A stretch of 64,000 nucleotides of DNA from Escherichia coli (GCF_003790525.1 NZ_CP033636.1); one strand, 5' to 3'; shown: positions 3,001 to 9,000, counted from the stretch's first letter. Program-made: the numbers.

Positions 3001-6000
3001 CCACGTCGTTTTGGAGAAACGGCTATCAGGGGCTGGAAGAAGGAGAAGCCCCTGCTTGTCCGTGAACCTTTCGGAAATGCTCGCCTGGCCACCCGGGCTG
3101 AAAAAGCCGCTATGCAGGAAAAAGAGTAATACCCCTTTTAGCATCCACAATTTCAACGTCCATCTGCCTTTAACCTTGCCTGTTAATAACGGAATCCTTT
3201 CTGACTGGCCGGATCCCACGCATAACCTGAACTGTTGGCTAACCGTCTTACAGCCAAATTCCCTCCTTTATCTGGCAGGAGTGCGTCCGTGAGCTCTGTA
3301 TGATCTACGTGTTTGTTCAGTAGAGCACATAACAGGAGTGGGGTATGACTGAATTAAATAAAAGCCCGTCCGGTTTTTCCGGAGCTGATGTCAGTAAAGA
3401 ACAGGCTGCCATAAGGGCACTTGTAGAAAGAGTAGTGACCAACTATCGCAGCCGGACAGCACCTGATCGGGTTCAAAAGGCTTCGGTAGCGTTTAATGGG
3501 GGATTAATCCTGACCCTGATGCTGGCCTTGTCGCTATTGGGCTACCTTGTGGCGGAATTGTTCAGGGGGTATGTTGCGGATAGTTCACCCTATGTGCCTG
3601 GTCTAAGTTATTCGCAATTTTCGATGCTGATGATCGTTGAGCTGTGTCTATGCTTTCTCGCATGGTTTTTGGTTGTCACAGGGGACTATCCCCGGCCGTG
3701 GATATTTCAGGTAGTCCCGATGGAGCAGTACTGGTTCTTTGACGAAGTGGATGACGACGATCTTGCCCGGCTTTCCTGTAACCCTTACATCAAGCGCTGG
3801 CTACTTGATGAAATGTCCGGTATTCATCGACTGACCTACACGAGGCTGCATGATCGACTGGAGCGCATCTGTAATATTCCATCCCATCTCGAATACAGCC
3901 GTATTCAGGCACATAAGCTTTCCCTAATCAACGGAACCAGTGCCTCCTGATCCTACCATTGCATCCGGAAATTAAACGGGCAGGAACTGCACTGTATGTT
4001 CCGACCAAGCAGCTGCCCGTTACCCTTTTCTTTAGTGTAAAAAGACTGTCTCCGACAACCGGAAGTGACTCATGTCAAATAAATTATAAATCAATGATTT
4101 ATGCAGGCAGGGTGTTTGGCTGATCAGGGCAGAGTGATATAATGACGCTGGTGCTGGAGGCTTTTGCCCCAGCCAGCGGTAACACTGTTTGACTGTGGTA
4201 AAAGCAGAAAGCCCCGAGTAATTTTTCAATTAACCTGTACTGCACCCATTTTGTTGGACGATGAAATGGAATAGCCCCTGATATGTCAAAGCCAAAATAC
4301 CCTTTTGAAAAGCGCCTTGAAGTCGTGAATCACTACTTCACTACTGATGATGGTTACAGGATCATCTCGGCACGTTTTGGTGTCCCCCGAACCCAGGTCA
4401 GGACATGGGTTGCCCTCTATGAAAAACATGGAGAAAAAGGTTTAATTCCCAAACCTAAAGGTGTTAGTGCTGATCCTGAGTTGCGTATTAAGGTCGTGAA
4501 AGCGGTGATCGAGCAGCACATGTCCCTTAATCAGGCTGCTGCTCACTTTATGCTTGCTGGTAGTGGTTCTGTAGCCAGGTGGCTGAAGGTTTATGAAGAG
4601 CGCGGAGAAGCTGGTTTACGCGCGCTCAAGATTGGCACCAAAAGAAACATTGCAATATCAGTTGATCCAGAAAAAGCGGCATCAGCATTGGAGCTGTCAA
4701 AAGACCGACGCATTGAGGATCTTGAAAGGCAAGTTCGATTTCTTGAAACGCGGCTTGTGTATCTAAAAAAGCTGAAAGCCTTAGCTCATCCCACGAAAAA
4801 GTGAAAGTACTCAACGAGCTAAGGCAGTTTTATCCTCTTGATGAGCTTCTCAGGGCTGCGGAGATACCGCGCAGTACGTTTTATTACCATCTAAAGGCTC
4901 TCAGCAAGCCTGACAAGTATGCGGACGTTAAAAAGCGTATTGGTGAGATTTATCATGAGAATAGAGGCCGATACGGATACCGTAGGGTAACGCTGTCTCT
5001 TCATCGAGAAGGGAAACAGATTAACCATAAAGCTGTTCAGCGCCTGATGGGAATCCTCTCACTGAAGGCAGCGATTAAGGTCAAGCGATACCGCTCTTAC
5101 AGAGGAGAGGTAGGGCAAACCGCCCCCAATGTTCTCCAAAGAGATTTCAAGGCTACGCGGCCAAACGAGAAGTGGGTTACCGATGTTACTGAATTTGCAG
5201 TCAATGGGCGCAAGCTGTATTTGTCTCCAGTAATAGATCTCTTCAACAACGAAGTTATTTCTTACAGCCTTTCGGAAAGACCAGTGATGAACATGGTCGA
5301 GAATATGCTCGATCAGGCATTCAAAAAGCTTAATCCTCACGAGCATCCTGTTCTGCACTCTGACCAGGGATGGCAGTATCGTATGAGAAGATATCAAAAT
5401 ATCCTTAAAGAACATGGTATTAAACAAAGCATGTCCAGAAAAGGCAATTGTCTGGATAATGCTGTGGTGGAGTGTTTCTTTGGAACCTTAAAGTCGGAGT
5501 GTTTTTATCTTGATGAGTTCAGTAATATAAGCGAGCTGAAGGATGCTGTTACGGAATATATTGAATACTACAACAGCAGAAGAATTAGCCTGAAATTAAA
5601 AGGTCTGACTCCAATTGAATATCGGAATCAGACCTATATGCCTCGTGTTTAACTGTCCAACTTTCTGGGGTCAGTACAACCCGAGGCCCCTGTATGCTAG
5701 TCACACACAGCGTAGCCTCTTGCCTGCTTAAATGCAAGGAGAAGAAGGCCATGAAAATGCCGAACCAACCCATTGTTTTGTGCATATTAATAGTTTGTTT
5801 AACGCTGTTGATATTCACCTGGCTCACACGAAACTCGCTTTGCGAGTTGCGGATGAAAGACGGAACAAGGGAGGTATTTGCTATCCTGGCCTACGAATCC
5901 GGTAAGTAGCTGACAAAGAGGGGGGCAACCCCCCTCTTTTCAGGGTGTGGATTAGTATGCCATCGGCACCTTTTGAAAGGGTTCCTCTAAAGCGGAGGAA

Positions 6001-9000
6001 CCCTTTTTTCTTTTAGTGAAAAGATTGTGGTTAGTAACGTTATGCAGGGTAAGCGTTCATATCAGCGGGCCACCAGCCATCTTTCATTCCCATCATGAAA
6101 TTGCGGTTCATTGTGCCCACAAACACTCAGCTGGGCACCGTTCCGCTTCATGCAGGTCCGGTGCATCTTCATTTTCAGACGCTAAGCTGATCGGGGTGCA
6201 TCGTGGAGCAGTGATGCCAGAGGGAGAAATTGCAACCGTGAAATCAAAACTTATCATTCGGCTACCGGGCAGTGGTACTCACCTGGCAGAGCATGTATTT
6301 ATATCCGGGCCTGGCTGATGCAGCCCTTCATACCTTCTGCTTCTCAAGGACACGGCGGAGTTTTTTTACCTGGGACGCAGTGGAAAGTGTGCCGGTTCTG
6401 GGATGGCATGCGCTTGCCTTTTCATCAGGTTTAAGCTCATAGGCTAATGCCAGATCGTTCAGAGCCGCCTCAGCTTTCAGCAGGGCCTCAATGGCCGTGT
6501 TCAGGTATACAGTTCGGCTCTCATGGTTCATCAGTATTGTCCTCACAAGGGTAAAATGACAGGCGATACCTGCCGTTTACCCTTTGTCTCCGTTAAGAAT
6601 GGCATTACGGCAGGCTTCCCAGATAACCTGGGCATTAGCATCACACTCCACGAACCCGCCGCACTGATCGTATATCACCTGGTATACCTCTGGGGGAATC
6701 TTCCCAGGCGCAACCGGAGTTGAGCGTTTGCCTTTATGAATCTCATCTGCGGTATCACAGACAGCGTCGAGATGCCGCGACATCCACTCAGATAATTTCA
6801 GACCCTCTCGATTTGCCTGTTTTACATAGCGAACCTTTCTGGAAACCGTAGATCGCATCTGAATCTGTGTCACAGCTGGCACATCTTCTTTCATGGCATT
6901 CTGTAATGCAGCTTTGGGCTTTTTCATGTTCATGGTTGCTTTAAATTATTCTGGAGTTCGTCTGTTATAAATGCTGCCGTGATCTGTCAGCGTCGCTTAA
7001 ATAGTTTATCGCCTTCCGCCAGTTCGCCGTTGAGCTGTTCAATCACACTCCAGATGAGCCGATCATCCGGCGTTGAGCCTGCACACTCTTTCACGACCGC
7101 CACGGGTCTAAATTCTTCAGGGTCTGCCTGCCCGGAGGTGAAGAGCCTGCTCTCAACCCAGTGGGCCCCCTCTGTGCAGCAGTGGCAACTGGTTTCAGGT
7201 GGTTCATCCAGACCGTCCACTCCACAGGCTGAGCAGGTGAACAGTTTGCGAGACCCACCAGCCAGTGGCGTATCGCAAGCTGCTGGAAGTGCGCCAGCAT
7301 TGCGCCAGTAAAGCACATGATTTGAATCGTAGCAGTGTCCATGAAGCAGAAGCGAAACGCCGCAACTGCGAGTTTCAATGGCTTTGCCTGTGCCAAGGTA
7401 TTGCCCGATTTCGTCCCATACGTCCACTAAGGTGTCAGGCAGCGGACGCGTAACAGGGAACTTAGCGCAGTCGTCCGGGGTGCCTTTAATGCAGCAGAGG
7501 GCCGAATACGCAAGCTCCTGCATTTCGTAGGAGTACTGACCACATACCACGCGTTCCAGTTTGTCGATTAGTTGTTCTTTATTCATCATACTTAGCCTTA
7601 TTAAACAAATTCATTACACCACTGGCACCATCTGGGCAGGAGCAGACTGCGGCCCGGTAGTAGAGCCGCAGGGGGTGTCGCTGGACTAACAGGCGCTCAG
7701 TGAGTCCCGCACTTCCTCATGACTGGTCATATTCAGAAGAAGCTTTCCAGGGCAGCGTGGTTCCGCCTGTGAACGGGTGACGTCTTCATTGAGTGCCTGG
7801 ATATGAGCAGATTCAACGGTCCTACGCTGTACGACATGGTTGCTAAGGTTGAATTCGCACTGGAGCCTTCTGGCATCAGAATCCGCGTTCATTGCAATGC
7901 GTTCATCAAAGCGGCGGTTCATTCGCAGAGCCTCTTCGTGAGCTGCATCAACAAGGGTGCGTCTGGTGACATAGTCGTTACCAGCAAAAAACGATAGCTG
8001 AGCGTGTTCCGAAGAGTAGTCGGAGCTTCCCTTACAACGGGCAATCGCGGCTTCAGAGTGCAGGATTAATGAACTCAACCGTGAACAGACGTCATTGATG
8101 GTGCCTGTTTTCAGACAGTCGTGGATAAGTGTCCAGGCGGAAATGCTCAGCGGGCGGCTGGTGGTCACATAGGGATTGTAATGATCAACCGTTACGATTG
8201 TACGCAGTGAATGAAGCGATTCGGACTGCGTACGTAAGTCACGGCGAACAGTAGATGCCACCGAGGCAACATCTTTACATTCTTTGTCGGACATCGAGTC
8301 CAGTACGCGGATCTCCACCTCTGCCGCCTTTGAGGCGATATGCGCACTAATCTCCCCCTTAAGACGTTTGTAGTCAGCCTTGAAGCTTCCCACGCTGTCA
8401 ATATCGATCCAGTAACCACAGCTGTAACCAGCATTACCAAACTCGTCATCTTTCTCATAGTTCGGACAGCCGTCATTGCTCCAGCCAGCTTTTTCCAGCA
8501 GCTCGTCAATAGCGACCAGCTCAGCCATTGGTGCATGTTCGATAATGAAATAATGGACACGGCCCCAGGCATATGCGCGTGAACGGCCATCAACAGAAGT
8601 ATCAGAAGTCGTCTGACGGGAAAGTTTCATGAGGTACTCCAGTTCTGCCCGGTACCGCCGGGGCGGTGGTGCGAAAGCCGCACCATGAATGACACTATGA
8701 TCCTCCTGACTTCTATTGTCAATACAATTGAAGCGGCGTTTTATTTATTCATTATTTGGACCCGGCTCGTACGGAACGACCGTCGGGACTTGCCGATCTT
8801 TCTACGGTGAGCAGGGGAAGGGAACATCCCAACGCTTGTTTCCAGATGTGCAGCCTGGGAGGGCGCAGAATGCCTGACAGAATCATCGTGCAGCGGTGGC
8901 GAAAGACCCGACAAACGGGAAAAGCATCCTTTTATTCCAAATCCAACCTCAGCTTTTAATTACGCCAGTACGTTTCCTAAACATGCCAAATCGGTCTCTT

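Follow-up and report, generated by a model that had tools for sequence, protein, structure and literature searches.

An IS150 insertion splits a probable hok/mok/sok post-segregational killing locus on an IncHI2 plasmid

A 64,000-nucleotide (nt) stretch of Escherichia coli DNA (GCF_003790525.1 NZ_CP033636.1), referred to here as the window and used for all coordinates unless stated otherwise, carries near its start a small toxin gene, a complete copy of the insertion sequence (IS) IS150 and a series of RNA-gene elements on either side of it. We assign positions 4116-6013, with good confidence, to a hok/mok/sok type I toxin-antitoxin (post-segregational killing) locus of an IncHI2 backbone that is interrupted by this IS150 and whose killing function has most likely been lost. 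An initial annotation of the same DNA had proposed a hok/sok-type module split by IS150 within the overlap of sok and the hok leader. All of its coordinates proved correct, and both the two Rfam half-matches that flank the IS and an IS-free allele found in other plasmids agree with the proposal. Landmarks were placed by alignment with the R100 hok/sok, F flm, REL606 hokC and K-12 hokA loci (hokB was also compared), R100 and F serving as reference loci in place of R1. All of them were located in this way, namely the hok promoter, mRNA 5' end, Sok hairpin region, mok Shine-Dalgarno (SD) box and ATG, sok promoter, hok SD box and open reading frame (ORF), G+C-rich hairpin, 3' element and terminator. 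The features of the locus are as follows.

4116-4143, plus strand: hok mRNA promoter, with -35 TTGGCT, a 16-nt spacer and extended -10 TGaTATAAT (promoter scan 10/12 with TG motif; aligns with the hok promoter region of R100 and F)
4150-4235, plus strand: 5' part of the hok leader, with tac (4150-4159), the upstream leader hairpin and the complement of the Sok hairpin/terminator (RF01794 positions 1 to ~84; minimum free energy (MFE) fold)
4200-4235, minus strand: 3' part of native sok (3' arm of the hairpin and U-tail), orphaned from the sok promoter (fold of the reconstructed Sok)
4233-4235, no strand: left copy of the target-site duplication ACC (present once in IS-free relatives)
4236-5678, plus strand: complete IS150 (IS3 family) in the same orientation as hok (1443 base pairs (bp); inverted repeats; Pfam)
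5601-5635, minus strand: terminator-like hairpin of 15 pairs followed by TTTAATTT, in the right end of IS150; candidate 3' end of a chimeric Sok (terminator scan; chimeric fold)
5679-5681, no strand: right copy of the target-site duplication ACC (sequence)
5682-5703, minus strand: 5' part of sok, comprising the single-stranded recognition tail and the start of the hairpin, still joined to the sok promoter (homology to the R100/R1 Sok 5' end)
5683-5686, plus strand: mok SD box GAGG (alignment with R100, F, hokC and hokB)
5694-5909, plus strand: mok-equivalent ORF of 71 amino acids (aa), in frame with hok and sharing its stop codon (ORF list; ATG aligns with the mok ATG of R100, F and hokC)
5709-5737, minus strand: sok promoter, TTGCAT-17-TACGCT (position in the alignment with R100; below the threshold of the consensus scan)
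5751-5909, plus strand: hok toxin ORF, 52 aa, intact (Pfam HOK_GEF PF01848; R100 comparison)
5917-5939, plus strand: G+C-rich hairpin AGAGGGGGGCAACCCCCCTCT downstream of hok, vacant here and an IS421/IS186-type insertion site in relatives (terminator scan, fold, comparison)
5961-5970, plus strand: fbi element, the 3' partner of tac (MFE pairing with 4150-4159)
5975-6013, plus strand: intrinsic terminator of the hok mRNA, 14 pairs and a T-run (terminator scan)

The toxin ORF at 5751-5909 matches the Pfam family PF01848 (HOK_GEF) with 64.5 bits (cutoff 22; E = 6.4e-18) and its product shares 36 of 52 residues (69%) with Hok of R100/R1, so that the earlier assignment of a 52-aa Hok-family toxin is upheld. 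The RefSeq/PGAP annotation of Hok in L001 (3395-3514, corresponding to window 5790-5909) begins at an internal ATA and comprises 39 aa of the full 52-aa ORF; mok and sok carry no RefSeq/PGAP annotation there. The element upstream of the toxin gene begins with TGTACTGCACCC and ends with GGGGTCAGTACA, with imperfect terminal inverted repeats (TGTACTG...). Compared with the copy of IS150 in E. coli K-12, 17 of its 1443 positions are different (98.8% identity). Its insJ-type ORF (4283-4804) matches Pfam HTH_28 and its insK-type ORF (4801-5652) matches rve/rve_2 (DDE), with a slippery heptamer A AAA AAG at 4765-4771 in the frame of ORF A and ORF B in the -1 frame. Length, repeats and an empty site with one ACC thus confirm the complete IS150 with a 3-bp duplication that had been described at 4236-5678.

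The IS-free sequence was rebuilt by joining 3950-4235 to 5682-6120 with a single copy of ACC, yielding 725 nt. This rebuilt allele is found 100% identical from end to end in many plasmids, including pAPEC-O1-R (typed IncHI2A); 181 records contain at least 80% of its length uninterrupted, and the interrupted allele is present in ~466 plasmid records. The Rfam model RF01794 (sok antitoxin / hok leader; gathering score 59) matches the IS-free allele end to end with 81.1 bits (E = 3e-18). In the window, the same model is recovered as two halves flanking IS150, one at 4149-4312 (46.7 bits, E = 1.8e-8) and the other at 5599-5753 (34.4 bits, E = 3.5e-5). Alignment with IS-free IncHI2 relatives, which had been suggested as a check on whether the left arm was unrelated to a hok leader, showed the two arms to be contiguous and identical there. 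The left arm had been described as the hok promoter and leader; its match to RF01794 positions 1-84, the landmark alignment and the pairing of 4150-4159 with 5961-5970 indicate that it is a genuine hok mRNA 5' end. Literature searches found no paper on the IncHI2 hok locus or its interruption, and in addiction typing by polymerase chain reaction, plasmids that are purely IncHI2 come out negative for hok-sok (PMC4855149).

By alignment, the hok mRNA starts with GGUGCUGGAGGC at 4150. The MFE fold of the IS-free mRNA pairs 4150-4159 with 5961-5970, as nt 1-10 pair with nt 389-398 in the R100 equivalent, and position 3 of this tac/fbi pairing shows a compensatory change (U-A in the window locus versus C-G in R100). 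IS150 now parts the leader at 4150-4235 from mok and hok. A second IS hotspot lies in the same locus, where IS421 (IS186-like) occupies the GGGGGGCAACCCCC hairpin 24 nt past the hok stop codon with a duplication of ~12 bp; pTBMCR421 provides one case and R478, with the IS in the opposite orientation, another (L002 4134-5484; L012 (R478), starting at the counterpart of window 5933). The IS421 site corresponds to window 5920-5933 and is empty here. REL606 hokC has IS421 just downstream too, and K-12 hokC and hokE carry IS186 at the corresponding place.

The mok SD box of R1 has been experimentally defined as GAGG, and its mok and hok start codons lie at 116-118 and 174-176 (PMC9841398). The distance from the mok ATG to the hok ATG is 57 nt in the window and in hokC, which places mok in frame with hok, versus 58 nt in R100, F and hokB, where mok lies in the +1 frame. 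The in-frame ATG at 5694 had been reported as a departure from R1; the spacing bears out the frame itself, although not its peculiarity, as E. coli hokC/mokC shows the same spacing, and this comparison suggests that an in-frame mok is a normal variant of the family. A +1-frame ORF at 5732-5905, which matches Pfam DUF5431 over profile positions 14-70, was considered as the true mok and rejected: a TAA (5729-5731) directly precedes its ATG, and the ATG itself lies within the -35 region of sok. Its likeness to R1 Mok is attributable to the overlap with conserved hok sequence.

On the opposite strand, the sok promoter (5737-5709) is aligned with the R100 positions of the R1 sok promoter hexamers, TTGCGC/TATCCT. 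The part of sok that remains joined to it (5682-5703) starts 6-7 nt downstream of the -10 hexamer and is complementary to the mok SD box and ATG. The initial annotation had already noted that this promoter stays on the toxin side and that its transcript would enter IS150 after about 24 nt, in agreement with an insertion 21-24 nt into sok. Native Sok, when reconstructed, is a predicted RNA of 57 nt with a 5' tail of 10-12 nt, a hairpin and a U-tail (fold z = -4.2). The RNA predicted to arise from the interrupted gene folds with an unpaired 5' tail of 15 nt, a GCCUCG...CGAGGC hairpin and, ahead of a U-rich tract, a hairpin of 15 bp (z = -5.9). Within the right end of IS150, positions 5640-5649 are the reverse complement of CACGAGGCAT, a sequence identical to the R1/R100 mok SD region. 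Owing to this reverse complement, the chimeric Sok can form its GCCUCG...CGAGGC hairpin, although the match is not significant after multiple testing.

The insertion lies directly 5' of the mok SD box CGAGG and 13 nt before the mok ATG, that is, after nt 86 of a hok mRNA of ~417 nt and ~21-24 nt into sok. Comparable insertions are known from E. coli chromosomes. In mutation-accumulation lines, the region between trg and mokB was found to be a hotspot of IS150 insertion, with two aerobic and eight anaerobic events (PMC5289635), and an evolution study reported IS150 at hokC(-71), mokB(-13) and hokC(-88) and next to hokE (PMC5419217). When mapped onto REL606, the hokC insertion at 16,972 corresponds to the ACC of CAACC preceding CGAGG and the mokB site to the AAC of TCAAC preceding CGAGG, both exactly homologous to the site in the window. 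The mokB site was placed at ~1,462,251-1,462,253 in REL606 by means of its published distances from trg and mokB. In Table 3 and the supplement of that study (PMC5419217), the coordinate printed for trg/mokB, 1,272,468, adjoins chaA/chaB in REL606, and 1,464,061, printed for chaA/ldrC, falls inside trg. Natural populations provide further cases: sokE::IS150 occurs in more than 400 isolates (PMC11551753), and sokA::IS150 is reported for MG1655 (Pedersen & Gerdes 1999, as cited in PMC11551753). In the annotation of K-12 MG1655, hokA/mokA/sokA is split, IS150 being flanked by pseudogenes for mokA and sokA. The K-12 hokA annotation and sokE::IS150 (PMC11551753) thus support the statement that IS elements have inactivated chromosomal hok loci.

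The same position is occupied on plasmids. In PLSDB, 1165 records match the window's left junction over at least 80% of its length, and 872 do so for the right junction; an IS150-type left end occurs in 1564 records, and in 1165 of these 1564 (~74%) it abuts a hok leader. At the identical IncHI2 site and in the identical orientation, three different elements were found: the variant present in the window, which is shared with pTBMCR421; the R478 copy, which is identical to K-12 IS150, its 17 differences from the window copy being scattered between positions 45 and 1430; and ISKpn8, with ~80 differences. The plasmid insertions are thus not all one event. Independent insertions in R1-type IncF loci have duplicated TTC and CCA, a Klebsiella IncFII locus carries ISKpn8 with the duplication CCCA, an IncF flm-type locus has the duplication ACC with the IS in the opposite orientation, and an IncI2 locus also has its insertion in the opposite orientation. 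A pattern scan of genome contigs was unspecific, with eight real cases among the 120 loci listed, and supplies examples and not counts. Among the loci listed were a hokA-type locus with the duplication AAG 5' of TGAGGC; two [Erwinia] mediterraneensis loci with insertions 5' of TGAGGC, one with ACC at both junctions (L116) and the other recovered at its left junction (L061); an Enterobacter hormaechei chromosomal locus; and a Superficieibacter locus. A (C/T)GAGGC box immediately follows the insertion in nine of 11 mapped sites. By these sequence comparisons, the position is a recurrent insertion hotspot for the IS150 group, conserved across the hok family on both plasmids and chromosomes.

At the level of independent events, ~11 insertions in the hok orientation compare with three in the opposite one, a bias that is not significant. 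A strict orientation requirement, in which the terminator at the right end of IS150 would be needed, was rejected in view of opposite-orientation insertions at the same site in IncF, IncI2 and K-12 hokA. The first 60 nt of each IS150 end were also aligned locally with four hok leaders, and these comparisons gave uncorrected p values of 0.01-0.98 with no consistent signal; the idea that IS150 targets sequence resembling its own ends is unsupported, the only notable match being the 10-nt identity of CACGAGGCAT with R100. The occurrence of these insertions in mutation-accumulation lines argues for targeting and not selection. A more far-reaching proposal, which we consider doubtful, holds that the junction of the Sok terminator hairpin and the mok SD box is a structure- or sequence-specific landing pad for the IS150 group, conserved across the hok family, and that IS150 is a recurrent natural disarmer of hok/sok on resistance plasmids (IncHI2, IncF, IncI2) and chromosomes. 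Under this proposal, a same-orientation insertion would create a hok-silent allele with a functional chimeric Sok, the hok or sok promoter would read into the IS, and the plasmid would escape its own addiction without killing the cell.

The consequences for killing can be judged against R1. There, pairing of tac with fbi locks the full-length mRNA; after 3' processing, tac captures the anti-SD box, allowing translation of mok and hence of hok (PMC9841398). Hok is no longer toxic when a single nucleotide is substituted in tac (nucleotides 4-6), the mok SD box or the mok start codon (PMC9841398). In the window, IS150 has entered the hok leader, duplicating 3 bp and leaving the hok promoter and the 5' tac and anti-SD elements 1.4 kb from mok-hok. 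Because promoter, tac and upstream leader are now this far away, the normal pool of stable hok mRNA could not form, and post-segregational killing would most likely be lost. Native Sok, having lost its own hairpin and terminator, could not be made either. The intact hok ORF would be harmless through the absence of a dedicated promoter, and a chimeric antisense RNA over the mok SD box and ATG may add to its silencing. Inactivation of the module is considered likely from the R1 mutational data (PMC9841398) together with the annotation of K-12 mokA and sokA as pseudogenes.

Several points weigh against this interpretation. Loss of function at this locus is something we infer, and its IS-free IncHI2 allele is known from sequence alone. 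Neither the hok ORF nor any of its flanking elements differs from the IS-free allele (100% identity), and this plasmid thus shows no signal of decay. Transcripts derived from IS150 without the upstream anti-SD box could in principle be translated, and the strong hok promoter, which now enters IS150, might permit read-through. The hotspot itself could be due to targeting or to selection, of which the mutation-accumulation data favour the former.

Three other readings of the locus were weighed. That its likeness to hok/sok is superficial, the left arm being unrelated DNA and IS150 sitting beside an orphan hok-like ORF, draws on nothing except that each RF01794 half-match in the window falls below the gathering score. 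It is practically negligible, being ruled out by the contiguous IS-free allele, which is identical in at least 181 plasmids, by its 81-bit match from end to end and by 5' and 3' ends that pair as in R100, including the compensatory change. Continued expression of hok would result in partial or deregulated killing, whether transcription crossed IS150 from the hok promoter or started at the promoter of the IS150 transposase. The hok ORF is intact, no plus-strand intrinsic terminator was found between the insK stop codon (5652) and the mok SD box (5683), and transcripts begun in IS150 would lack the anti-SD box that sequesters the mok SD box in R1 (PMC9841398). However, the 5' tac of R1 is needed to translate the processed mRNA (PMC9841398), and the arrangement is tolerated by hundreds of plasmids in many hosts, R478 among them, which speaks against a deregulated toxin. 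In addition, the hok start codon has apparently been hit by another insertion in some sublineages: L077 and L123, which are of IncHI2 type and bear ISKpn8, diverge from the window inside this codon (between GAAGGCCAT and TGTTAACACC), 74 nt to the right of the IS. Judging from the sequence, another insertion has apparently destroyed hok in these plasmids, consistent with a dispensable gene. We therefore regard continued hok expression as very unlikely.

The remaining reading, which we rate as unlikely yet clearly less so than continued toxin expression, is a hok-silent and sok-active allele. Here, a chimeric antisense RNA running from ~5702 to ~5593, with the native 5' tail, the complement of the mok SD box and ATG, and the hairpin and terminator of IS150, would neutralise residual or read-through hok mRNA. 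If true, this would account for the survival of the cell at insertion and for the tolerance of an intact toxin gene. The interrupted locus keeps the sok promoter and the first 21-24 nt of Sok, and the predicted chimeric fold retains the unpaired 5' tail while gaining hairpins and a U-rich tract (z = -5.9). According to Thisted et al. 1994, Sok reportedly acts via its 5' single-stranded leader. Same-orientation insertions prevail in the records (1165 versus 2) as well as among independent events. Against this stand the in silico nature of the prediction, the lack of significance of the event-level orientation bias, and the opposite-orientation insertions at the same site in IncF (L011), IncI2 (L010) and K-12 hokA, from which it follows that the right-end terminator of IS150 is not required for viability. 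An interrupted locus that has most likely lost post-segregational killing thus remains the preferred interpretation.

On this large group of IncHI2 multiresistance plasmids (R478-like, mcr-1/ST3-like), an annotated hok gene should not be taken for a working addiction system, which matters wherever plasmid stability is explained from gene lists. IS150-interrupted hok loci are known (sokA, sokE and the mokB hotspot), and the window presents a plasmid-borne case. A single micro-site in the hok leader holds most plasmid-borne IS150-type copies in PLSDB, through many independent insertions. This plasmid hotspot ties together K-12 sokA, sokE::IS150 and the hotspot at mokB in evolution experiments, and suggests a target preference of IS150 for a conserved feature of these RNA genes. 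Recurrence at one micro-site across replicons is a modestly new synthesis and not a new mechanism, and current understanding is not overturned.

Elsewhere in the window, a hypothetical ORF of 93 aa at 2848-3129 (L001 1899-2180) is labelled 'Brucella suis mprF, defensin resistance' at 100% identity by PLSDB/RGI; given its size, this looks like a spurious database call. Rfam matches at 32214-32330 (ALIL pseudoknot, an IS3-family frameshift element; 121.5 bits) and 49471-49546 (AAC_AAD leader/attI site; 61.8 bits) point to another IS3-type element and to a class 1 integron, respectively.

Among known systems, the K-12 hokA/mokA/sokA::IS150 locus resembles the window locus in having IS150 between the hok promoter/leader and the toxin ORF, within the same leader segment, with sok split. 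It differs in being chromosomal, whereas the window locus is plasmid-borne, and in carrying IS150 in the opposite orientation. Moreover, the K-12 insertion shows no duplication, and ~40 nt of the mok SD/ATG region are gone in comparison with L079, in which the hokA-type leader is intact and IS150 lies in the other orientation than in K-12. This sequence comparison suggests an IS-adjacent deletion in K-12 hokA, whereas the flanks in the window are complete. The mokB and hokC insertions (also hokE and sokE) of E. coli B evolution and mutation-accumulation lines and of natural isolates occupy the identical homologous position, and the hokC duplication is also ACC (PMC5289635, PMC5419217, PMC11551753). 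These cases are chromosomal and in plasmid-free strains, where killing is moot, whereas the window locus is a maintenance module of a large conjugative resistance plasmid. With regard to the downstream site, the IS186/IS421 insertions next to hokC (REL606) resemble the IncHI2 relatives that carry IS421, unlike the window, in which the site is empty. R1/R100 hok/sok (parB) and F flm share with the window locus a 52-aa Hok (69% identical), the RF01794 match and the order promoter, tac, Sok hairpin, mok SD/ATG, antisense promoter, hok, fbi and terminator. R1/R100 hok/sok differs in that mRNA nucleotide identity is ~65%, the window mok is in frame (57 versus 58 nt) and the window leader is ~17 nt shorter; furthermore, the R1 locus has been characterised experimentally, whereas the IncHI2 locus is described here purely from its DNA.

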